A stretch of DNA of 17,458 bases. Origin: Candidatus Latescibacterota bacterium. Lineage in GTDB: Bacteria; Latescibacterota; UBA2968. Below the pieces are notes generated by a model, which worked only from the letters and a program-made list of their open reading frames with translations, was not told where the DNA came from and ran no database searches. The translations under genes and the position numbers were made by a program. This document shows, in pieces, positions 5,192 to 17,458 of this stretch (its first letter is position 1; every line of letters starts with the position of its first letter). The stretch lies in NCBI GenBank assembly GCA_038279365.1, contig JAYODI010000030.1, positions 1 through 17,458 on the forward strand. The letters are read 5' to 3'.

Positions 5192-5917
5192 TTACTTTCG
5201 ACTCATCAATGTCAATTGTTTCAAAATTTTAGGTTTATCAGCCGCATAATCCAAAGCCGTTTTGCCGTTGGCATCGACAACTTTGATATTGGCACCCGCT
5301 CGAATCAGCACCATAACCACATCGAGATAGTTGTTTTCGATGGCCCATAACAAAGCCGTTTTGTCCTGTACATCTGCTTGTTCCAGCTTGGCTTTTTTTT
5401 GCAATAATGTCATTACGACATCTGTATGCCCACCATAAGCCGCATGCATCAAAGCATGCCAACCCTTTGTACCCACTGCGTTCACTTCGGCACCCGCATC
5501 CAAAAGTGTTTTTACAATTGATGTATCCCCCTTGTCTGCGGCATACATCAATGGCGTTTTATCAAATGTATCTTGTGCATTTGGGTTCGCTTTGGCCTTG
5601 AGCAACATATCCAAAATATCTTGATGTCCCAAACGCACCGCCTCCAAAAGCGGTGTCACATCATAGCGATCTTTTTCTATATCGGGTTGTGCATCGAGCA
5701 ACAAACGCACAATGGCAGGGTGATTTTTTTCTACAGCCCACCAAAGAGCAGTACCTTGATGAATCGTTGTATTTACATTGGCACCCGATTTTAAGGCCAC
5801 CTGCGCAATTTCTATGTTGCCAGTCGCTGCCGCTTGCACCAACAAGGAGTCCAATTGGCTTGCCTGCACGTGTGACATGCCAAATAAAAACACAATTAAA
5901 AAGCGCATTCCAAACAT
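5192..5917 (-). CDS. Ankyrin repeat protein with probable Sec signal peptide
   Basis: About 6-7 repeats of TxLxxA...G..xxVxxLL.xGA.xN; N-terminal MRFLIVFLFGMSHVQA with a VQA cleavage motif; AAGGA RBS. Confidence 0.92.
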   Translation of the reverse strand: MFGMRFLIVFLFGMSHVQASQLDSLLVQAAATGNIEIAQVALKSGANVNTTIHQGTALWWAVEKNHPAIVRLLLDAQPDIEKDRYDVTPLLEAVRLGHQDILDMLLKAKANPNAQDTFDKTPLMYAADKGDTSIVKTLLDAGAEVNAVGTKGWHALMHAAYGGHTDVVMTLLQKKAKLEQADVQDKTALLWAIENNYLDVVMVLIRAGANIKVVDANGKTALDYAADKPKILKQLTLMSRK

Positions 5918-6047: not shown

Positions 6048-7676
6048 CTAAAAAATAATGGCCGCCTGAATGCGATGAAGCACTTCTTGCTCATACGCTT
6101 TAAAATGTTTGTCATAAATATCTTGGCGCAAGATGGCCACCACCTTATAAGACAAAGACCGAAAGCGTCCTCCCGGAATATACATGCGGCATTCAGGGTC
6201 TGTTCGGTCCCACAACCGAGGATCTTTGGGCGCCAAATAATTTAATATTTTTTGACTGCCATCTTCTTCACGCGAAAAAATAGCAATCAAATGAGGCGCA
6301 TGGCGGCTGTCATCGTGCCCAACACTTACAGCTTGTGAATCAGTGGTATCATACCAGCGCGGCTGATCACCCCTATTGACACTGATGCTTCCTCCTAACG
6401 AAACCATCGCACGTGCTGGCGCAATCACATCACTTTGCATATTACACAAAGCAACCATATAAGTCTGATAAAGACCCCCTTCGCTCAAATTGGCCAATGC
6501 CGTAATTGCTTCATGGCGCGACACGGGTTTACGCGCTTGCGTTCGGGAAATAAACACCTCGGCAATGGTTACAGGGATAATTTTTCGCAAATCCAGCTCG
6601 GTAAAAATTTTATATGAAAAATTGTCTTTTTCAAATTTTTCCGAAACCTTCACCTCATCACGTGTCTTGAAAAACTCCCGATGAAACGCAACTATTTCTC
6701 TATTTTCAGACAATCCAAAAATTCGCAATACACCCTCATGAGCGGCCAACTCTTTAATGTCTGAATGAAAAAGTACCAAATCAATAAGCGTTTCCGACAC
6801 TGTTTCAATTTGTGGCGTTTGTGCCACAACCATGGCTCCCCGAATCTCATGCCCATCCACCACCCCTGCTTGCCAAAGCCCCGCATCGTGCATAAAACCA
6901 CCCAAAAAAACTTCTACCAATTCACGCTTAAACAAAATCTGCTTTTTTTCTTTCAAAATCTTATCGTTCATATGCAGTGGTGGTGCTTCACCCAAATATT
7001 CAAAAATTTGTTCGGGAGAGGCTTTTGAAAAATATTCTTCCTCACCCATCATGGCCACCAACTCCGTGGCAAAACAAGCCACCTTCAGCGCGTGTTTAAG
7101 GCTCACCACATTGATGTCATGTTGGGTAATGAGATCCATAATCAATGTGTTGCCATGCTCAATATATTCTTCAATGGCATTTTCTGTGTTTTTGCGAAAT
7201 CGCTTTAACGCTGCGCCAAATACAGACAATGCCTGTTTGACCTCTGGGCGTGTAAAATCTTGCGATTTAAAGTGCATACCCGAAAGTACACCATGTACTT
7301 GTTCGGCATGTTTAGACACCCGCCTTGCAGAACGTGTAACCCTTTGCGTTGCCATCCTCGCACGTTCTTCACCATTTAACCGTTCAATATCATTTGCAAG
7401 TTCTGGGGGCAAGTCTTCTTTGTTGCGAAGTGTCTTAATTTTTTCACCATCGCCACTTTCATAAACAATAACCGAAATTGATGCATCCAAGTTGCGCTTT
7501 CGCCGCGCAATAAATTGCAAAGCACGAGGGGTTAAGTGAGAGTTATAAGTGATCATCTCTCCCCCGCCGGGTGCGTGGTGCGATTCGGCTATGCGAATGT
7601 CTAAGCCCAAATTTTGTCGCTCGTTTTTAACCAACAAATCATGTGCTTGACGTATGGTAAGTTTGCGAACATTCAT
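6048..7676 (-). CDS. Divergent HD-domain protein, degenerate HD-GYP-like, lacking the GYP motif
   Basis: Ordered HD-GYP-like motifs 'LKHALKVA', 'FMHDAG', 'GHEIRGA', 'LFHSD', 'TIAEVFISRT' and 'RKPVSRHEAI'; ATGA-coupled to the upstream REC-HD-GYP gene. Confidence 0.7.
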   Translation of the reverse strand: MNVRKLTIRQAHDLLVKNERQNLGLDIRIAESHHAPGGGEMITYNSHLTPRALQFIARRKRNLDASISVIVYESGDGEKIKTLRNKEDLPPELANDIERLNGEERARMATQRVTRSARRVSKHAEQVHGVLSGMHFKSQDFTRPEVKQALSVFGAALKRFRKNTENAIEEYIEHGNTLIMDLITQHDINVVSLKHALKVACFATELVAMMGEEEYFSKASPEQIFEYLGEAPPLHMNDKILKEKKQILFKRELVEVFLGGFMHDAGLWQAGVVDGHEIRGAMVVAQTPQIETVSETLIDLVLFHSDIKELAAHEGVLRIFGLSENREIVAFHREFFKTRDEVKVSEKFEKDNFSYKIFTELDLRKIIPVTIAEVFISRTQARKPVSRHEAITALANLSEGGLYQTYMVALCNMQSDVIAPARAMVSLGGSISVNRGDQPRWYDTTDSQAVSVGHDDSRHAPHLIAIFSREEDGSQKILNYLAPKDPRLWDRTDPECRMYIPGGRFRSLSYKVVAILRQDIYDKHFKAYEQEVLHRIQAAIIF

Positions 7677-9364
7677 AAGGCAACGGGCCCACTTTGATAA
7701 ACCACATCTGTAACATGAAGCACAGGATGTTCACGCAAAGCAATCACGCGCTTGTCTCGCACCACATTGCCTTGTGGATCATTTACAATTTGTATGGTTG
7801 GGCGCAATGGGTGAGCCTCATTCGATTCGATCACTTGCCCAACAGCCCCCGAATTAAGACGCACCAAACTGCCCAAAGGAAATGTCGATAATTTACCAAT
7901 TAAAACACGCATCAAAGCAGGCGAAAATTTAGCACGTGCACTACGGGTAATTTCTTGTACGGCCTGAAATGGCAAATATCCTGGTCGCTCTGGCCGTGCA
8001 CGCGTCAACCCTGCATATGTATCTGCCAACCCAATGATCTTGGCATAAGGCAAAATTTGATCACCCGACAAACCCTCAGGGTAACCCGATCCATCTTCAC
8101 GCTCATGTTCCTGATACACCACATCAGCCAACCAACTGTATCCAATTCCCAAAGACTTTAAGACCGTTTGTGCACGTTTGGGATGGTTGTGCAACAACTC
8201 ACGATCCTTTTTATCCAACTTCACTTTGGTAAAAAAGTCGGGCGGCAAATAGGCCATACCCACATCATGAAGCAATGCAGCCACCCCCAATTCCACCAAT
8301 TGGTCAGGTGTATATCGAAACCCTTCACCAATTTTAAGTGCATAAATACAAACATTGATCGAATGCAAGACCACACTTGCCGAAAAACCATAATCTTCGC
8401 CTGTTTCAGGTGTTTGAAGTGCCCATCGAAACAAATCATTTGTAGCAGAAGGGATGTTCACAATGTGATGCACCAACTCAAATGCGGGTTGCACTTCCAA
8501 ACGTTTAATGGTGTGTTGTGCACTCATAAACCCTTCAACATACGTATACAAATGTGTGTAAATTTTCTCTATATCAAGCACATTCAAATCGTCAGGTTCT
8601 GGCACATAAACAGGTTTTACATCCAAATCAGGCGCTTCAACACCAGATGAGATTTTGATTTCTTTTTGAAACTGGGCTTCAAACGCTTCTAAGCTTTTAC
8701 TCATATTTTGACATTCCCGCATACAGGTGCGCACCAGGCGATTCACAGGCCCCGGATACCCCCGCCCCTGTTTGCGACAGTTATCAGCCTGGTCGCGAAT
8801 GGCATCAACCGATTCATGCAAGGTGTCCAACTTCTCAATAATGCTGCGATACTGTCTTTCATAATGCAATATCTTGTCTTCCAACGCTTCCATCTCATCT
8901 TTGCGCGATGTAATCACGCGCTCAAGGCTACGCTGGTGTGCTTGTTGTTCCTCTATCAATTTGGCATTTTGGCGTTTGAGTTCGGAATGTTCCAAAGCAT
9001 TTACAATGGCCTGTAACAATTCCAACATTTCAAATGGCTTTTCGATATAATCATAGACCCCCAACCGAAGTGCCTCAATTGCCGATTCGGTTGAGGCATA
9101 ACCCGTCATCAAAATAACCGCCACGCCCGAGTGATTTTCCTGAACATAACGCAACAACTCCATGCCCGACATTCCCGGCATGCGAATATCTGTAACCAAC
9201 AGGTCATAAACATTTTCTTGAAGCCATTTGATCGCTTCATGCCCGTCATTTGCAGTATCAACAATAGTACCCTGATCTTGCAAAAAGTCGGCAAGACCTT
9301 TGACCAAAATATCTTCGTCGTCCACAAGCAAAATACGGCTGTTTTTAAATGCACTTTTGATCAT
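7673..9364 (-). CDS. Response regulator with REC, coiled-coil and HD-GYP domains; putative cyclic-dinucleotide phosphodiesterase
   Basis: Intact REC domain (LVDDE, TDIRMP phospho-Asp, MTGY, KPF); HD-GYP motifs 'HSINV', 'LLHDVG', 'NHP', 'QEHEREDGSGYPEGL' and 'LADTY'; C-terminal 'FPLGSLVRLNSG...PLRP' domain. Confidence 0.92.
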   Translation of the reverse strand: MIKSAFKNSRILLVDDEDILVKGLADFLQDQGTIVDTANDGHEAIKWLQENVYDLLVTDIRMPGMSGMELLRYVQENHSGVAVILMTGYASTESAIEALRLGVYDYIEKPFEMLELLQAIVNALEHSELKRQNAKLIEEQQAHQRSLERVITSRKDEMEALEDKILHYERQYRSIIEKLDTLHESVDAIRDQADNCRKQGRGYPGPVNRLVRTCMRECQNMSKSLEAFEAQFQKEIKISSGVEAPDLDVKPVYVPEPDDLNVLDIEKIYTHLYTYVEGFMSAQHTIKRLEVQPAFELVHHIVNIPSATNDLFRWALQTPETGEDYGFSASVVLHSINVCIYALKIGEGFRYTPDQLVELGVAALLHDVGMAYLPPDFFTKVKLDKKDRELLHNHPKRAQTVLKSLGIGYSWLADVVYQEHEREDGSGYPEGLSGDQILPYAKIIGLADTYAGLTRARPERPGYLPFQAVQEITRSARAKFSPALMRVLIGKLSTFPLGSLVRLNSGAVGQVIESNEAHPLRPTIQIVNDPQGNVVRDKRVIALREHPVLHVTDVVYQSGPVAL

Positions 9365-9727: not shown

Positions 9728-10486
9728 ATGGAAATGGAAAAAGCACTGCTTGAATTAGGGGTAAACGACAACACCCTCACCGACCAAGAAAAAGCATTTT
9801 TAGACGAAAATGGTTATCTGCCCCTCCACAACATCCTCTCACCCGAACAAGTCTCCGCCTTGCGCACCCGATATGACGAATTGGTCGAAGAAGAAGGCGA
9901 AGATGCAGGCAAAGAAGTACACCAAGAAGCCGGTACCAATCGGTTGGCCGATTTGGTTAATAAAGGACAAATGTTTGAAGTTTGCTTTACCCACCCCCGT
10001 GTCTTGGCCGCCATCAAACACGTTTTGGGTTCCTATTTTAAACTGTCTTCCCTCAATGGCCGAGCCGCCCTGCCCAACCAAGGCCTGCAAGGCATTCACG
10101 CAGATTGGGGCACTGCCGTTGAACCCGGCGATTATTATGTGTGCAACTCCATTTGGTTGCTCAACGATTTTTCGCCCGAAAACGGTGCCACACGTGTGGT
10201 GCCAGGTTCTCACAAAAGCCGGCAACACCCCCGCGATGTTTTAACCGATCCCAAAGCACCCGTGCCCAATGAGCTAATCATAACAGAAAAAGCAGGGACC
10301 GTGGTTATTTTTAATGCACATACTTGGCATGGAGGAACCCTCAACCGCAGCAAAGAGCCCCGTTATGGCCTACACAGCTATTATTGTCGCCGCGATCAAA
10401 CCCAACAATTGGTGCAAAAAGACTATATCAGGCCCGAAACATACAACCGCCTCAGCCAAGCCGCGAGAACCATTTTAGACGTTTAA
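9728..10486 (+). CDS. Phytanoyl-CoA dioxygenase (PhyH) family Fe(II)/2OG dioxygenase
   Basis: 'FLDENGYL', canonical triad H124-x-D126 (HADW) and H201 (TWHGG), 'NGATRVVPGSH', and the 2OG-binding Arg in 'PRYG'; AGGA RBS. Confidence 0.92.
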   Translation: MEMEKALLELGVNDNTLTDQEKAFLDENGYLPLHNILSPEQVSALRTRYDELVEEEGEDAGKEVHQEAGTNRLADLVNKGQMFEVCFTHPRVLAAIKHVLGSYFKLSSLNGRAALPNQGLQGIHADWGTAVEPGDYYVCNSIWLLNDFSPENGATRVVPGSHKSRQHPRDVLTDPKAPVPNELIITEKAGTVVIFNAHTWHGGTLNRSKEPRYGLHSYYCRRDQTQQLVQKDYIRPETYNRLSQAARTILDV

Positions 10487-10572
10487 ATCAGGCCCACTTT
10501 AGATACCCTGCCCACCATAAATCCCAAAATATTGGATGACTATTAAAACCGTCACCTATAATAGATTTAAAG

Positions 10573-10609
10573 AAAAACGGTGCTTATAAGCACCGTTTTT
10601 TATTTTTTT
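10573..10609 (+). terminator. Intrinsic terminator, probably bidirectional
   Basis: Perfect 28-bp palindrome AAAAACGGTGCTTATAAGCACCGTTTTT (10573-10600) followed by a further T-run. Confidence 0.8.
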
Positions 10610-10671
10610 GTGCAGAAACTCATGGATCTGCCGATCATGATGAATGTGAGGGTTTTTCCCTTTTTTATACC

Positions 10672-10802
10672 GTGATACCCATCTTGCGTGGGGCAAGATC
10701 GTATCACAAAGACCAACACGTGGGGTGTTGGTCATACAAAATCGATGGGGCCAGCGTCTTCATGGCGCATTTACATACCGCTCAAATCTGAGCCTTATGT
10801 AA
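10672..10802 (+). promoter_or_regulatory. Structured leader with two hairpins sharing an identical GUGGG loop
   Basis: GTGATAC-cc-ATCTTGC-gtggg-GCAAGAT-c-GTATCAC (10672-10707); GACCAACAC-gtggg-GTGTTGGTC (10711-10733); TTACATA..CTCA-aatc-TGAG..TATGTAA (10771-10802) just before the RBS. Confidence 0.55.
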
Positions 10803-10817
10803 GAAAGGGTATCTCTT

Positions 10818-12008
10818 ATGCGCATCTCAAGTTCCAATATCCAATTTGCGTCACAACATGTCGAAACGCAAACCTATACACAAAAAGAAACCATTACCGA
10901 ACGCATCCGCCAAATTCAAGAAGACGCACCCAACCGCACAACCACACGTGCCCAAAATGAAACGGATCGCCCTCAAACACCGCCACGCTTCAACATCTCC
11001 GACACCGTCAATCTCTCCAACCGTTTTGAAGGTTTGGGCACACTCATGCAACGTGCCACCCAAACCATCAAAGACAACACCATCGTCAACACCGCCACAC
11101 CCACCGAAGGCATGAACCCCGAAGACTTTGAATTCAGTGCTGAAGACAAAGCCAAAATCGAGATGATCATAGCGACTGTTGAACGTATTACGGGCAAAAA
11201 GATAAAACTCGTCGAACCCGACAAAGCCCTCAAAGAAGCCTACCAAACACCCACACTTGACTCACTGCCCGTAATGGCTCAAATGAAGGCCGACCAACAA
11301 GCCGCACAAGAAGCCATAGAAACTGCACCACCGCCCACACAAATACGGGAAGTGCGTTACCAATTTGAAGAATCATATTACGAAGCCGAGTCCACATCTT
11401 TTGACGCACAAGGCATTGTCAAAACAGTCGACGGCAAAGAAATTGCCATGGACATTTCATTGTCTATGAGCCGAGAATTTCTACAAGAAAAATCCATCGA
11501 CGTCACCATTGAACAAATCATCAAAGACCCACTCGTTATCAACTTCGATGGCACCGCCGCCGAGTTGACCGACCGCAAGTTTGCATTCGACATCGACATG
11601 GACGGCGCCACCGATCAAATCAGCTTTGTCAAACCTGGCAGTGGTTTCCTCGCCCTCGACAAAAATGGCGATGGCACCATCAACGACGGCAGTGAACTAT
11701 TCGGTGCCCGCACCGGAAACGGCTTTGCCGAATTGGCTGCCTACGACGACGATGCCAATGGTTGGATTGACGAAAATGATTCCATTTACGAAGGTTTGCG
11801 CATCTTCTCCAAAGACAGCGACGGCAATGACCAACTCGTTGCGCTTGGCCAGCGCGGTGTTGGTGCCATTTATTTGGGCCACACCGACACACCCTTTCAA
11901 GTAAAAGACGAAAACAACCAACTACAAGGCATCGTGCGCAAATCAGGCGTATTTCTAAACGAAAATGGTTCTGCTGGCACAGTACAACAACTCGATTTGG
12001 TTGTTTAA
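10818..12008 (+). CDS. Hypothetical protein with C-terminal Ca2+-binding FrpC-type self-processing (Asp-Pro) module
   Basis: D237-P238 'KDPLVINFDG', followed by 'FDIDMDG', 'GFLALDKNGDGTINDGSELFG', 'NGFAELAAYDDDANGWIDEND' and 'LRIF'; no Sec signal peptide. Confidence 0.75.
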   Translation: MRISSSNIQFASQHVETQTYTQKETITERIRQIQEDAPNRTTTRAQNETDRPQTPPRFNISDTVNLSNRFEGLGTLMQRATQTIKDNTIVNTATPTEGMNPEDFEFSAEDKAKIEMIIATVERITGKKIKLVEPDKALKEAYQTPTLDSLPVMAQMKADQQAAQEAIETAPPPTQIREVRYQFEESYYEAESTSFDAQGIVKTVDGKEIAMDISLSMSREFLQEKSIDVTIEQIIKDPLVINFDGTAAELTDRKFAFDIDMDGATDQISFVKPGSGFLALDKNGDGTINDGSELFGARTGNGFAELAAYDDDANGWIDENDSIYEGLRIFSKDSDGNDQLVALGQRGVGAIYLGHTDTPFQVKDENNQLQGIVRKSGVFLNENGSAGTVQQLDLVV

Positions 12009-12038
12009 TAAACGCCATCTACAAACACATAGTTTTAT

Positions 12039-12068
12039 AAAAAAAACCGCATTGCGCGGTTTTTTTTT
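12039..12068 (+). terminator. Bidirectional intrinsic terminator
   Basis: AAAAAAAACCGC-attgc-GCGGTTTTTTTTT, 30 nt after the stop codon. Confidence 0.8.
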
Positions 12069-12304
12069 GTCCATTTCTCAAGTCAAACAACAACCATCAC
12101 AGCGTGCCAATACCTTTTGCATATCCTTTTAAAAGTCTCTACATTACCACCCAGTTGTGCGCACACACCCCATCAATGGACAAAACGGGCTTTTTGTAAA
12201 CCGCACCTTCACCATACAAATAAAGGTGAAGTGCCCTTTTAAAGGATGACATAAAAGCACCTCTTACTGACAATCATAATAAACCAACATGAAAGCGAGT
12301 TGAA

Positions 12305-13237
12305 ATGTCTCCCGAAGAAAAAATGGATGTGCCCTTTCCGGCACTGACCCCAAGCCAACGCCTACACTTAGACGTCAATGGATATGTCGTCATCGAAAAC
12401 ACCCTCACACCCGATGAGTGCGGTGCCCTCATTGAGGCGTTGCAAAAACTCAAACGCGACATCATTGCCGCGGGCAGACCCCTATCCAAAAGTCACGATC
12501 AATCAACCAAGGTTCGAGGCGCCGGCCTCGCAAACAACAAACCAACGCACCACGATTTTATGCGCGATATCGAACAAGCAGACCCTCTCTTTGCGGCCTA
12601 CATCACACATCCCCGCATGGTGGGCATGGCGGCAGAAATCATCGGTGGCGAAGTGCGCATGGTAGAATCAAATGCCCACATCAATACACGCGCACCCGAT
12701 TGGGAATCTCAAGATCCCGCAACCTACAAATTTGGCTTTCACCGAGGCACCGACGTGCCCTTTGGCAGCCACACACGACACGGTCTCTATCACAGTAACT
12801 TTGTCAAAACACTGACCAACCTAACAGATCTGGGGCCAGACGATGGCGGTACCGTCGTCATTGCTGGCAGTCACAAAATCGACTTGCCCCCCCAACAACT
12901 CATCGAATGCGCGTATCAAGACCGTTCACTCATTCACCAAGTCATCGCGCCCGCAGGTTCTACCTTGCTTTTTGCAGAACCCCTTATTCACGCCACAGGA
13001 CATCTCATCAGTGAACGCGAACGCGTCATCATCATCACAGGATATGGCCCCGCCCAATTTCCATATTGGGGCGATGGTGAACTGACCGATGAATTCAAAA
13101 AACAGATCCCACCCAATCTGCACGTGTTATTCCACGGCCGTCAAAACTGGAACCGACGCGTTCAAGAACGCGAAGACCTAATGACCCCAGCCGACCCACG
13201 CCCCTTCAAATTGGGCACTTGGAATCAGAGAGATTGA
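12305..13237 (+). CDS. PhyH-family Fe(II)/2OG enzyme with HxG motif; halogenase candidate
   Basis: 'LDVNGYVVIENTL', 'HPRM', H146-R-G148, 'LTDLGPDDGGTVVIAGSHK', distal H229 (EPLIHA) and R240. The start could instead be the Met at 12323. Confidence 0.85.
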   Translation: MSPEEKMDVPFPALTPSQRLHLDVNGYVVIENTLTPDECGALIEALQKLKRDIIAAGRPLSKSHDQSTKVRGAGLANNKPTHHDFMRDIEQADPLFAAYITHPRMVGMAAEIIGGEVRMVESNAHINTRAPDWESQDPATYKFGFHRGTDVPFGSHTRHGLYHSNFVKTLTNLTDLGPDDGGTVVIAGSHKIDLPPQQLIECAYQDRSLIHQVIAPAGSTLLFAEPLIHATGHLISERERVIIITGYGPAQFPYWGDGELTDEFKKQIPPNLHVLFHGRQNWNRRVQEREDLMTPADPRPFKLGTWNQRD

Positions 13238-15005: not shown

Positions 15006-16631
15006 ATGCGTCATTTTTTTATTGTTCTCATCCTACTCAGTTTGTTTGCCTGCACCAACCCGCCCCAACAAGATGGCATGGTGCGCATCGGATGGCCCGG
15101 AAGCCCCGATGCACGCCACCCCGGCATTGCTGTTTTGTCACAAGCATACAGCATTTTTGCGCTGGTTTATGACACCCTCTATGCCCTCGAACTCGACGGG
15201 TCGTATGCACCCAGTTTGGTCACCAATAGCACCCAGTCACAAGACGGCACCACCTATACGTTCCACCTTCAACCCAACGCATCCTTTCACGACGGACAAC
15301 CCGTCACCGCACACGACGTGGCTTTTTCTCTCAGTTTCTACCACGACCATCCCGACTTTCCACTCTTATATGCCTACACACGCCAGTTTAAAAAAATAAC
15401 CGCCACCGACAATCACACCGTTGTGCTCGAACTCACCGAACCGGTACCCAACATCGAAAGCCAACTGGCCTTCCTCTTCATTCTACCCAAGCACATTTGG
15501 CAATCACACACCGAAGGCGAAAAGGCATTGCAATTTGACAACGCCAACATGATTGGCAGTGGACCATTCCGTTTGGTCGAATATGCACAAAATGCATTTG
15601 TTCACTTAGAACCCCATGCATCACATCCTTTGGCACCCAAAAACATTCATGGCGTTATTTTTCAAACCTTTGCCAACCAAGACGCCCTCGTACAAGCCAT
15701 TCGCACCGGCCAAGTAGACGCCATTACCGAAATGCCTTTCACCGCTTTTGAAGGCCTTAAAACACAAGCCAACATACAGGTCTTTTCAGGAACACCTTCA
15801 CAACCCGAAGTCACCGATATCATCATCAATCAGCTCGATCCCCAAAACGCCCCAGAAGGCAGCATCACCTCAGGTCACCCTGCTCTTCGTGATGTGCGCA
15901 TGCGCAAAGCCCTTGCCTTGGCCACCAACAAACAACGCCTCATAGACATCGTTTTATTGGGTCATGGCAGCTTGGGCAAAACGCTCATTCCCGATGGATT
16001 GGGACATTGGTTTAACAGCGAACTGACAGATTATCCCTTTGATCCCGAACAAGCCAAAGCACTTCTCGACGACGCCAATTATCAAGACACAGACGGCGAT
16101 GGCATTCGAGAAATGCCCAATGGTCAACCCCTTAACTTTCGTGTCAGTTGGCCCACAGACAGCACCATTTCTCCACGCATGGCCCGCATGTTGTCCGAAA
16201 TGTGGGCAGACATTGGCATAAGTACCCAGTTGCAAGCCGTTGACCCCGATGCCCTCACCGCACTGTGTTGCCCCGCCTTTGATTACGACATCATACTCTG
16301 GGGGTGGACCACCGCTTCAGATCCTGCATTTTTACTCGACATCATGACCTCCTATGGCATTCCCACAGGCACCAACGAAACAGGATATGCCGACCCCACC
16401 TACGATGCCAAGTATCAGCAACAAGCCATTGCGTTGGATGCTCAAAAACGCCAACAAATTGTGTGGGATATGCAACGCCAAGTACACGAGGCAGTAACGT
16501 ATATCATTCCCTTTTACCCTAAAGTTTTGCAAGCCTATCGTACCGACCGATTCTCGGGTTGGGTCACAAACACCCCCCGTTTGGGCATCGAAACCCCACG
16601 TTCACTTTCAGCACTCACACCACAACCTTAA
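15006..16631 (+). CDS. ABC transporter substrate-binding lipoprotein, family 5 (peptide/nickel, DppA/OppA-like)
   Basis: Lipobox LFAC; 'SQDGTTYTFHL...FHDGQPVTAHDVAFS', 'IGSGPF', 'DVRMRKALA' and 'FDPEQAKALLD'; GGAG RBS. Confidence 0.93.
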   Translation: MRHFFIVLILLSLFACTNPPQQDGMVRIGWPGSPDARHPGIAVLSQAYSIFALVYDTLYALELDGSYAPSLVTNSTQSQDGTTYTFHLQPNASFHDGQPVTAHDVAFSLSFYHDHPDFPLLYAYTRQFKKITATDNHTVVLELTEPVPNIESQLAFLFILPKHIWQSHTEGEKALQFDNANMIGSGPFRLVEYAQNAFVHLEPHASHPLAPKNIHGVIFQTFANQDALVQAIRTGQVDAITEMPFTAFEGLKTQANIQVFSGTPSQPEVTDIIINQLDPQNAPEGSITSGHPALRDVRMRKALALATNKQRLIDIVLLGHGSLGKTLIPDGLGHWFNSELTDYPFDPEQAKALLDDANYQDTDGDGIREMPNGQPLNFRVSWPTDSTISPRMARMLSEMWADIGISTQLQAVDPDALTALCCPAFDYDIILWGWTTASDPAFLLDIMTSYGIPTGTNETGYADPTYDAKYQQQAIALDAQKRQQIVWDMQRQVHEAVTYIIPFYPKVLQAYRTDRFSGWVTNTPRLGIETPRSLSALTPQP

Positions 16632-16634
16632 ACC

Positions 16635-17458
16635 ATGCGTGCCTTTTTTCACAAAACGGCGTGGGCATTTTTTACCATTGGTATTGTGCTCATATTCAAC
16701 TTTTTTCTCTTTCGCGTTTTACCCGGTGACCCGGCACGTGCAGGAGTGAAAGACCCCCGCATGAGCCCCGAAGCCCAAGCCGCCATTCGTGCGCGCTTTG
16801 GCCTCGACCGCCCCATCATCAATGGCATCACAGCCCTACATCCACTGCGTTTTGGAAGTTGGACAACCAACCCCTTAGACACGCAGTTTTTTTTGTACTT
16901 TCGCAACCTTGCTCACGGTGATTTGGGCATCAGCTACCACACCGGTCGCCCCGTTTCAGATGTGCTTCAAGAACGCCTTGGCAACACCATTTTACTTGTC
17001 GGTGCAGGGCAACTGGTCGCCATCTTCATCGGCCTATCACTCGGTGCATTGTCTGCGTGGAAAGCAGGCAAAACGCTCGACCGTGCCACATTCACATTGG
17101 GGCTTATCGGTTGGAGTTTGCCCACCTTTTGGTTGGGCATCATGCTGCTCTTTTGGGGCAGTACCCATTTCAACTTACCCGTAGGTGGCATGCAAACACC
17201 CGGATTTTCTCGCGCTAACATATGGACACAGTGGGCAGATGTTGGAAATCACTTACTCCTACCGACCCTGGCCCAAGCCATTGTCTATCTGGCCCAATAC
17301 CTCCTCATTGCCCGCAGTGCCATGCTCGACACCCTCTCCGAAGACTACATACGCACCGCCCGCGCCAAAGGCCTCAGTGCCACGCGCATATTGACCCACC
17401 ATGCCGCCCGTAATGCTGCGCTGCCCATCATCACCATGGTGGCCCTCAACTTAGGCTT
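16635..17458 (+). CDS. ABC transporter permease, DppB/OppB-like (partial, runs off the window)
   Basis: Not in the ORF track because it has no stop in the window; translated by hand as MRAFFHKTAWAFFTIGIVLIFNFFLFRVLPGDPA...FGLDRP...GDLGISY...LPTFWLG, with the EAA loop 'EDYIRTARAKGL...HAARNA'. Confidence 0.95.
   Translation, partial: MRAFFHKTAWAFFTIGIVLIFNFFLFRVLPGDPARAGVKDPRMSPEAQAAIRARFGLDRPIINGITALHPLRFGSWTTNPLDTQFFLYFRNLAHGDLGISYHTGRPVSDVLQERLGNTILLVGAGQLVAIFIGLSLGALSAWKAGKTLDRATFTLGLIGWSLPTFWLGIMLLFWGSTHFNLPVGGMQTPGFSRANIWTQWADVGNHLLLPTLAQAIVYLAQYLLIARSAMLDTLSEDYIRTARAKGLSATRILTHHAARNAALPIITMVALNLG

Follow-up and report, generated by a model that had tools for sequence, protein, structure and literature searches.

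Why should a short bacterial protein without repeats-in-toxin (RTX) sequences end in a self-processing module (SPM) of the FrpC type, and by which route could such a protein reach the place where the module works? The question is raised by an open reading frame (ORF) at positions 10818-12008 (+) of a 17,458-nucleotide stretch of DNA from a Candidatus Latescibacterota bacterium (contig JAYODI010000030.1 of assembly GCA_038279365.1), the whole of which is called the window throughout. It is the longest frame of the surrounding region and encodes 396 amino acids (aa) followed by a stop; it has a DUF8379 plus SPM architecture, and its homologues can be aligned over residues 1-396. A first-pass annotation, made from the letters of the DNA, had described a stand-alone protein with a Ca2+-dependent clip-and-link module at its end and had suggested release of the N-terminal part and export by a non-Sec route. 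We found that residues 238-396 are genuinely homologous to the FrpC SPM, with a similarity far beyond chance. Promoter type and co-occurrence, together with gene linkage in some loci, tie the family to which the protein belongs to flagella.

Identity of the C-terminal module

The reading frame, the Asp237-Pro238 pair (GAC CCA codons, 11526-11531, +) and all the motifs quoted in the first-pass annotation were found in the translation. When the protein was compared with all PDB sequences by phmmer, the FrpC module was the sole significant match: the SPM structure 6sjw_A was hit with E=1.7e-6 (query residues 238-384 to chain residues 1-158) and the precursor 6sjx_A with E=3.7e-6, in an alignment that starts from D237. 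A profile of 146 family members recognised the FrpC module with E=1.4e-13. The AlphaFold2 model of the 396-aa protein had a mean pLDDT of 77.9 and a pTM of 0.62, the module being mostly above 90. Foldseek aligned this model with 6sjx (E=1.4e-6) and 6sjw (E=7.1e-6), with a probability of 1.00 in each case, and VIA-align superposed 139 residues (model 212-396, chain 7-170) on the FrpC module with Z=13.6 and an rmsd of 3.5 Å; the next-best chain reached Z=3.8. The assignment of the SPM to residues 238-396 (11529-12005, +) is borne out by sequence, profile and fold matches. Pfam and NCBIfam scans of the protein returned 0 matches; the Pfam copy scanned does not include PF26745, the SPM family of Pfam 38.1, so this result is uninformative on membership. 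Precomputed PF26745 is carried by the 97%-identical protein P0002 and by all 120 homologues listed.

The predicted scissile bond aligned with D414-P415 of FrpC. Its conservation across homologues, on which the earlier description depended, was complete: D237, P238 and L239 were invariant in 121/121 and 146/146 aligned relatives, the mean column identity of the 146-sequence alignment being 28%. The roles of the FrpC residues were mapped onto the family via the phmmer alignment. Four EF-hand-like Ca2+ sites are described for FrpC in PMC7078468 (D419-G424 with D456; D462-E474; D499-D511; D521-E532). The second and third loops are kept here with identical spacing as D281-E293 (site 2: D281, N283, D285, E293) and D310-D321 (site 3: D310, D312, N314, D318, D321), and D281, E293, D310, D318 and D321 were conserved in 146/146 sequences. 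A further conserved DxDxDG loop lies at D258-D266, the 'narrow port' glycines of FrpC are kept as G296 and G302, and the W451/W519 pair is represented by F270/W330. D393, present in 143/146 sequences, is probably the equivalent of FrpC D579, as judged from the fold alignment, which extends to model residue 396 and chain residue 170 and does not resolve single residues. With the final strand of the module the protein comes to its end.

The family and its N-terminal domain

The family had been recognised only as widespread hypothetical proteins, and the searches agree with that description. An exhaustive search of the 50%-identity representatives returned 13,546 of them at E<=1e-3, of which 2,241 reached E<=1e-30; in a word-indexed search 8,000 candidates were scored, 7,184 of them at E<=1e-3. 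Most of the homologues listed are unnamed or labelled 'VCBS repeat-containing', and most of the 120 also carry PF28292 (DUF8379, Pfam 38.1). Family members are 330-470 aa long, and in each the chain finishes with the module's final strand. P0271 and P0272 (705-758 aa), which have an enlarged N-domain and an extension of about 250 aa after the module, are the only close relatives detected that do not have the SPM at the C-terminus. SPM proteins of the RTX type, with HCBP_related and HemolysinCabind domains, appeared as distant relatives only (E=1e-11 to 1e-21).

Relatives were present in at least 545 of 600 pattern-matched stretches, taken from one genome per species. The best 80 of these came from Beta- and Gammaproteobacteria, Desulfobacterota, many Bacillota, Nitrospirota, Acidobacteriota, Fibrobacterota, Latescibacterota and one metagenome-assembled genome (MAG) labelled Bacteroidota. 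In the latter (L036, 3782-5589 and beyond) two family copies stand in tandem; this genome has FliA and no FlhA match, which suggests that the bin may be incomplete or mixed.

The N-terminal fragment that is predicted to be freed comprises residues 1-237 (10818-11528, +), with D237, the would-be reactive Asp, at its C-terminus. Outside the module the first ~30 residues are conserved (M-[KR]-I-x-S-S-x-I-x-L-x-S-x-H ... E-S-L), as are residues 177-236 and a helix at ~105-134 (E-x-L-T-G-K-K-I-x-L-x-x-P); the conserved segments of the N-part are connected by a linker at ~50-100 that is variable and disordered. AlphaFold2, applied to the whole protein and to the N-domain alone, predicted three antiparallel strands of ~30 residues (3-33, 174-203 and 208-235) with pLDDT >90 and helices at 108-125 and 134-141. 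The model is uncertain at residues 234-251 around the D-P bond (pLDDT 30-45).

No match above the noise marks (Foldseek E<=1e-3; VIA Z 8) was obtained for the N-domain in fold searches with the whole model and with the N-domain alone, which does not prove a new fold. An Atlas search that skipped SPM clusters gave scores of only 0.82-0.83, and the best values of the N-domain profile were E=0.056 against PDB sequences and E=0.12 against PHROGs. The weak top matches were pore-state hairpins of the MACPF/CDC and gasdermin type (Foldseek E=1.6e-3 to 1e-2 over ~64 columns, rmsd 2.7-3.2 Å; VIA Z 5.8, 5.2, 4.5 and 4.4), and this likeness, seen in a predicted model, is a geometric resemblance only. A complex prediction with 3 copies of residues 1-237 gave no answer (score 0.01 vs a mark of 0.42) and is evidence neither way.

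Neither RTX repeats nor a Sec signal or transmembrane segment was found in the 396-aa protein by the Pfam scan, in the sequence or in the model. The protein contains no cysteine and has a pI of 4.4. Cysteine made up 0.10% of 269 family proteins, 210 of which had none, vs 1.37% of 242 neighbouring ORFs of 300-500 aa, of which 12 had none. The near-absence of cysteine together with an acidic pI is typical of exported proteins.

Link to flagella

The regions upstream of the family genes were analysed in 52 of the 81 loci, namely those in which the N-terminus pattern fixed the start codon and a 260-nt flank was present; the other 29 were left out. The most enriched 6-mers in these 260 nt were CCGATA (23 loci vs 3.0 expected), GCCGAT (20 vs 2.8), CTAAAG (17 vs 3.3) and CGATAA (16 vs 3.3), which are the two halves of the sigma-28/FliA promoter, with its consensus TAAA-N15-GCCGATAA. 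Sites of the form TAAA-N14-16-GCCGATAA with at least 11/12 matches were present in 17/52 family upstreams vs 4/866 control ORFs of the same loci, and looser sigma-28-like sites in 25/52 vs 30/866 (Fisher p ~2e-19 for strict and ~1e-19 for looser sites). Their distance from the start codon is 35-125 nt upstream, and they span four classes or phyla (Beta-, Gammaproteobacteria, Desulfobacterota and Bacillota). Upstream of the gene in the window, a sigma-28-type -10-like box, GCCGATCA, was found at 10630-10637 (+), 181-188 nt before the start codon; it matches the consensus GCCGATAA at 7/8 positions. The block ATCTGCCGATCATGA, which contains this box, is identical in a 76%-identical relative (L002), and in each of the same-phylum members L091-L094 the 300 nt upstream contain GCCGAT[AC] but no canonical -35 element.

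The profiling of co-occurrence with flagellar genes, which had been proposed as a check, gave a strongly positive result. FlhA (PF00771, E<=1e-30) and FliA (TIGR02479, over the curated cut-off) were sought in the genomes carrying 50 of the 80 loci, 11 short-contig loci and L063-L081 being left out. FlhA was found in 49/50 of these genomes and FliA in 48/50, including the single FlhA miss. In 300 genomes drawn evenly from the class of Acetobacterium (Clostridia-type), 35 had the family and 110 had FlhA; the latter was present in 34/35 family-positive vs 76/265 family-negative genomes (p=9e-16, a value that, like the other p-values, overstates the case because related genomes are not independent). 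In the phylum of the window the family occurred in 9/125 genomes and FHIPEP matches in 39/125, i.e. in 8/9 family-positive (7 of full length) vs 31/116 family-negative genomes. The genome of the window itself holds a single copy of the SPM-family gene. It also has no fewer than 6 flagellin genes, flhA and, 2 kb from the latter, the true fliA (277 bits, C48:13352-14020).

Linkage to flagellar genes (fliD, fliS, flaG, fliW or flagellin) was detected in at least 5/80 loci with a limited query set. In a Pelotomaculum MAG (L025) the order is giant flagellin, fliB, two small ORFs, the family gene, fliD, fliS, flgN and flaG, where fliB, encoding a flagellin lysine-N-methylase, scored 255 bits. The family gene follows fliD, fliS and one ORF in a Selenomonadales MAG (L012), it is divergent from flaG-fliS in a Syntrophomonas MAG (L032), a flagellin gene and flaG lie within 8 kb of it in a member of the Bacillota (L074), and in a Nitrospirota MAG (L059) it precedes fliW with a 24-nt gap. 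The giant flagellin of the Pelotomaculum locus (L025:12-6512) is 1,681 aa long and has a weak CBM5/12-like match.

Other recurrent neighbours were ABC ATPases, GGDEF-EAL proteins, hemH/hrcA/recN/grpE, response regulator-HD-GYP proteins and Ser/Thr kinases; these reflect lineage synteny or abundant gene families. Close same-strand neighbours were rare (upstream 6/71, downstream 8/75), and the family gene is usually its own transcription unit. Two further neighbours may be recorded. In four loci of Desulfobulbales and one of Nitrospirota (L017, L018, L021, L034 and L059; e.g. L059:5107-5907) an 'SprA-related' (PF12118) gene is no more than 3 genes away from the family gene, and an SLT lytic transglycosylase gene adjoins the family gene in 5 loci, its best NCBIfam match, which is sub-threshold, being 'flagellar assembly lytic transglycosylase'.

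Proposed mechanism and its alternatives

We suggest, and would give the suggestion an even chance, that the protein belongs to the late flagellar regulon, is exported via the flagellar type III system and cleaves itself outside the cell when triggered by Ca2+. The gene would be transcribed together with the late (sigma-28, class III) flagellar genes. The chain would stay unfolded in the low-Ca2+ cytoplasm, as the FrpC SPM does without Ca2+, and could leave the cell as a late substrate by way of the flagellar type III channel. To our knowledge, this is the only dedicated signal-peptide-independent route common to monoderm and diderm hosts, and the earlier idea of a non-Sec export would in this way be sharpened to a specific proposal. 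Outside the cell, here in Ca2+-rich brackish or sea water, the module would fold around Ca2+, strain the Asp237-Pro238 bond and cut it, giving fragments with computed masses of 26.8 kDa and 17.0 kDa. For FrpC, PMC7078468 reports an SPM that is unstructured without Ca2+ and has a Kd of ~150 µM for Ca2+, the free cytosolic Ca2+ being below 100 nM; because of this Kd and the unfolded state without Ca2+, the FrpC SPM acts only outside the cell. The 237-aa N-fragment would be left ending in an Asp anhydride, which would either be hydrolysed or form an isopeptide bond with a nearby lysine. The most economical candidates for an acceptor would be the own filament or cap, or a surface touched by the flagellum, and the position of the gene between fliB and fliD in the Pelotomaculum locus hints at flagellin lysines. 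The fuller proposal, that the family is a widespread late flagellar export substrate which is cut by Ca2+ and whose Asp anhydride grafts the beta-sheet N-domain covalently onto lysines of the filament, the cap or a touched surface, we regard as doubtful.

A number of observations weigh against the proposed mechanism. Flagellar neighbours were absent at 75/80 loci, and no flagellar gene lies within the 17.5-kb window. A conserved operon partner was sought among 1,040 ORFs clustered from 81 loci and had to be rejected, no neighbour family being present in more than 13 loci. No sigma-28-like site was found in 27/52 family upstreams, and the gene of the window has no canonical TAAA at 14-16 nt from GCCGATCA; a GAAA stands at 11 nt instead. 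In favour of the box, one flagellin gene of the same genome has TAAA-N11-GCCGATGT, others there having canonical sites. Roughly twelve FliA/WhiG-like sigma-factor paralogues, with scores of 87-138 bits that fall short of the cut-off, are also encoded in that genome, and one of these might read the non-canonical promoter of the SPM gene. Pieces of the SPM gene occur in metatranscriptome assemblies, as described below, which agrees with expression but is no proof of transcription because DNA can contaminate RNA libraries. The co-occurrence has its exceptions, in addition to the inflated p-values. The complete genome G049 lacks FlhA and has a family copy, in which homology is lost after residue 330 and the last ~66 residues, a third of the module, are gone; this fits decay after the loss of flagella, as a single case. 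G121, with only an FHIPEP fragment, and G289, without FlhA, are both family-positive, and the copies in the FlhA-positive genomes G046 and G048 contain an in-frame TAG. Since only 34/110 flagellated Clostridia-type genomes hold the family, the family is accessory. For the first 30 residues the models predict a strand that is well packed (pLDDT 94-98), unlike the known flagellar export signals, which are disordered.

The remaining points concern the module itself. The first Ca2+ site of FrpC (D419/D421/D423/D456) corresponds to N242/variable/variable/S275 and is non-acidic, N242 being present in 144/146 and S275 in 139/146 sequences. The fourth loop is ~4 residues shorter than in FrpC (K332-D333-x-x-G336-x-D338). 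FrpC D478 is replaced by A297 here (among the 146 sequences, 68 have Pro, 61 Ala and 16 Thr), which leaves the transient fifth Ca2+ site, made of D478 and D579 beside the scissile bond in FrpC, with its D478 half missing in the family. Taken together with the low pLDDT around the D-P bond, such differences would suit a C-terminal domain that merely binds Ca2+ and folds, with a structural Asp-Pro and no cleavage. The replacement of D478 is no argument against cleavage, because D478 and D579 were shown to be non-catalytic in FrpC (PMC7078468). SPMs only 60-71% identical to FrpC all cleaved when tested (PMC12538545). For these two reasons autocleavage at Asp237-Pro238 is rated likely from the sequence, and a D-P-L triplet that is invariant in 146/146 sequences at so low a mean identity also argues against the non-cleaving domain, which we hold to be very improbable.

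Where the cut would take place is a separate matter. The protein might be a Ca2+ sensor of the flagellar regulon that stays in the cytoplasm: a rise of intracellular Ca2+, caused by envelope damage or signalling, would cut it irreversibly, and the N-domain, freed or activated inside, would act e.g. on the motor or on late flagellar genes. The lack of a classical secretion signal of any kind would be explained, the conserved N-terminal strand and the helix 105-134 resemble elements of a folded domain, and a flagellar link suits a regulator as well as a substrate. Genes of cyclic di-GMP (c-di-GMP) turnover lie near the family gene in 19/81 loci, including 7673-9364 here, a frequency from which we draw no conclusion. 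An irreversible one-shot cut would be odd for a motility regulator, and near-zero cysteine and an acidic pI are, as said, typical of exported proteins. The distance between the Kd of ~150 µM of the FrpC SPM and a free cytosolic Ca2+ below 100 nM (PMC7078468) is a further difficulty, and we consider a cytoplasmic sensor unlikely. Export by a non-flagellar route (type I reading the C-terminus, vesicles or lysis), with the flagellar tie reflecting co-regulation with the motile planktonic state, would agree with the absence of flagellar neighbours at most loci and with a strongly conserved C-terminus (Q-Q-[IL]-D-L-V-V). All characterised SPM proteins are substrates of the type I secretion system (T1SS) (PMC7078468; PMC3034196). 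The conservation of the C-terminus is explained otherwise, because this segment falls on the final strand of the SPM fold (model 396 to chain 170). Among monoderm Bacillota the family is frequent (35/300 Clostridia-type genomes), and we know of no RTX-type T1SS that operates in monoderms. No T1SS component recurs, the ABC ATPases in 13/81 loci standing at varied distances and in varied orientations, and a 98% co-occurrence with the export gate FlhA is tighter than co-regulation would need. Such a route appears quite unlikely to us.

The fate of the freed N-domain allows one more alternative. Gasdermins become free when their inhibitory C-terminal part is cut away, and by analogy the SPM could be a Ca2+-operated safety catch on a beta-pore-former or on another oligomeric beta-barrel or fibre. 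In the model the three strands of ~30 residues share one conserved, largely hydrophobic face, and the best weak fold matches of the N-domain were the pore-state hairpins of the MACPF/CDC and gasdermin type. All of these stayed below the noise marks (none at Foldseek E<=1e-3, all with VIA Z <8), the 'hydrophobic' face carries the invariant charged residues E189, E191 and R219, unlike a lipid-facing surface, and for many of the hosts, which live freely as sulfur oxidisers, methanotrophs or syntrophs, no target cell is evident. A pore-forming role seems highly improbable, and late flagellar export followed by self-cleavage is the reading that we retain.

The gene in its surroundings

The SPM gene is flanked by two PhyH-family dioxygenase genes (9728-10486 and 12305-13237). 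The upstream one is closed by an intrinsic terminator at 10572-10601 (+), a 13-pair stem followed by a T-run. Behind the SPM gene a hairpin (CCGC-ATTGC-GCGG) between an A-run and a T-run at ~12040-12069 (+) is its likely terminator; it was read by eye, and the terminator scan did not list it. Lying between the two, the gene reads as monocistronic and as its own transcription unit. DNA of the window was found in estuary, marine and marsh metagenomes, and pieces of the SPM gene in four metatranscriptome assemblies from three studies, covering parts of 10730-12026. Nothing was covered over 10501-10729 or beyond 12041, and such gaps prove nothing; the ends of the metatranscriptome contigs at 12005-12026 give only a weak hint for the terminator.

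The 5' leader (10645-10817, +) is predicted to be structured, its minimum free energy of -68.7 kcal/mol corresponding to z=-5.09, with 0/200 shuffles as stable. It contains two hairpins with the same GUGGG loop (stems 10684-10698 inside 10672-10707, and 10711-10733), and its Shine-Dalgarno region pairs with the upstream CCCUUUUUU. The leader is kept in L002, where hairpin 2 shows one compensatory and one wobble change. GUGGG-loop hairpins were not found upstream of other family members. No Rfam family reached its gathering score in the window, the weak sub-threshold rows in 10560-10840 falling on the terminator hairpin.

The architecture had been described as lacking RTX repeats and a Sec signal in the protein and T1SS genes in the window; the Pfam scan and the gene survey led to the same picture. 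No T1SS gene was seen within the 17.5 kb, the ABC components at 15006-17456 being an Opp-type solute-binding protein and permease. Further upstream, a 542-aa ORF without a Pfam match (6048-7676, -) overlaps by 4 nt the end of a response-regulator/HD-GYP gene of the c-di-GMP phosphodiesterase type (7673-9364, -), which suggests an operon; a gene of the latter type lies near the family gene in 7/81 loci, including L002. UPF0175 and DUF3368 genes with an 8-nt overlap (1943-2696, +), situated between an S15 X-Pro dipeptidyl-peptidase gene and proS, resemble a toxin-antitoxin pair. The frame 5192-5917 (-) encodes a 241-aa protein made almost entirely of ankyrin repeats, which are uncommon in free-living bacteria.

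Novelty and comparison with known systems

The clip-and-link module is known experimentally from a handful of pathogen RTX proteins and is already an engineering tool (NeissLock). Its chemistry has been described for FrpC, FrpA, ApxIVA and two further RTX homologues (PMC7078468; PMC12538545). The module chemistry is thus known, as are the SPM and DUF8379 as families of Pfam 38.1. The literature searched, its supplements being outside the scope, contained nothing on DUF8379, on the stand-alone family or on a link between SPM and flagella, only work on RTX proteins and NeissLock. A 'VCBS repeat-containing protein' is tabulated next to FlgL and FlgE in the secretome of Pseudomonas plecoglossicida (PMC10746435) and another in an S-layer fraction of Methylomicrobium album (PMC13274458); they may or may not be members of the family, and neither is counted as evidence here. 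What is new is the known module in a new architecture, in a new host range and probably in a new export context, together with the link between the DUF8379 plus SPM family and flagella. The commonest natural form of the SPM by far is a short stand-alone protein, with at least 2,241 clusters at 50% identity in at least six phyla, and its tie to flagella rests on promoter type, on phyletic pattern and on gene linkage, three lines that are independent of one another. If the proposed route is true, cargo of a new kind would be added to the flagellar secretion system, along with Ca2+-gated covalent ligation as a chemistry new to it, and the function of the SPM in monoderm bacteria would be explained. 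The family would then be a self-catalysed system for the covalent decoration or adhesion of flagella in Gram-positive and Gram-negative bacteria, and the first class of SPM that needs neither RTX repeats nor a type I system to work. For engineering, the family offers natural SPM variants in their thousands, which differ in the make-up of the Ca2+ sites.

FrpC and the present family share a homologous module by sequence, profile and fold, with the Asp-Pro at the start of the module, two EF-hand-like loops of the same spacing, the port glycines, the aromatic pair and a C-terminal strand with a conserved Asp (D393 in the family). The expected logic would also be the same, i.e. unfolded without Ca2+, folding and cutting outside the cell. 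The two differ in that the SPM stands at the extreme C-terminus of a protein of ~360-400 aa in the family, whereas in FrpC it lies inside an 1,800-aa RTX protein. The family has no RTX repeats, HCBP-related domain, T1SS or FrpD-like partner gene, it occurs in monoderms as well as diderms, and it is tied to flagella rather than to iron regulation. An internal SPM, RTX nonapeptide repeats and a T1SS characterise the clip-and-link RTX subclass of FrpC and ApxIVA, and none of the three was found for the 396-aa protein.

The late substrates of flagellar type III export include FlgM, flagellin and FliD, and non-flagellar proteins such as Campylobacter FlaC/FspA and Yersinia YplA are also reported to leave via the flagellar system. 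The family resembles such substrates in the sigma-28-type promoter of many members, in its co-occurrence with FlhA and FliA and in some fliD, fliS, flaG or fliW neighbours; it likewise has no Sec signal, is nearly cysteine-free and acidic and contains a large disordered stretch. It differs from them in that the 396-aa protein matches no flagellar family of Pfam or NCBIfam, that axial-type coiled-coil termini are missing and that only about a third of the flagellated genomes sampled (34/110) possess it.

Self-generated linkers of bacterial surfaces are known in the isopeptide domains of Gram-positive pili (CnaB2, the parent of SpyCatcher) and in thioester adhesin domains. These have in common with the chemistry proposed here that neither enzyme nor ATP is used and that an amide bond to lysine is formed outside the cell. 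Their bonds are intramolecular or arise from a Cys-Gln thioester, and the family is structurally unrelated to them. In the family the reactive group would be an Asp anhydride that arises from the cutting of the chain, as engineered in NeissLock (PMC7846742).

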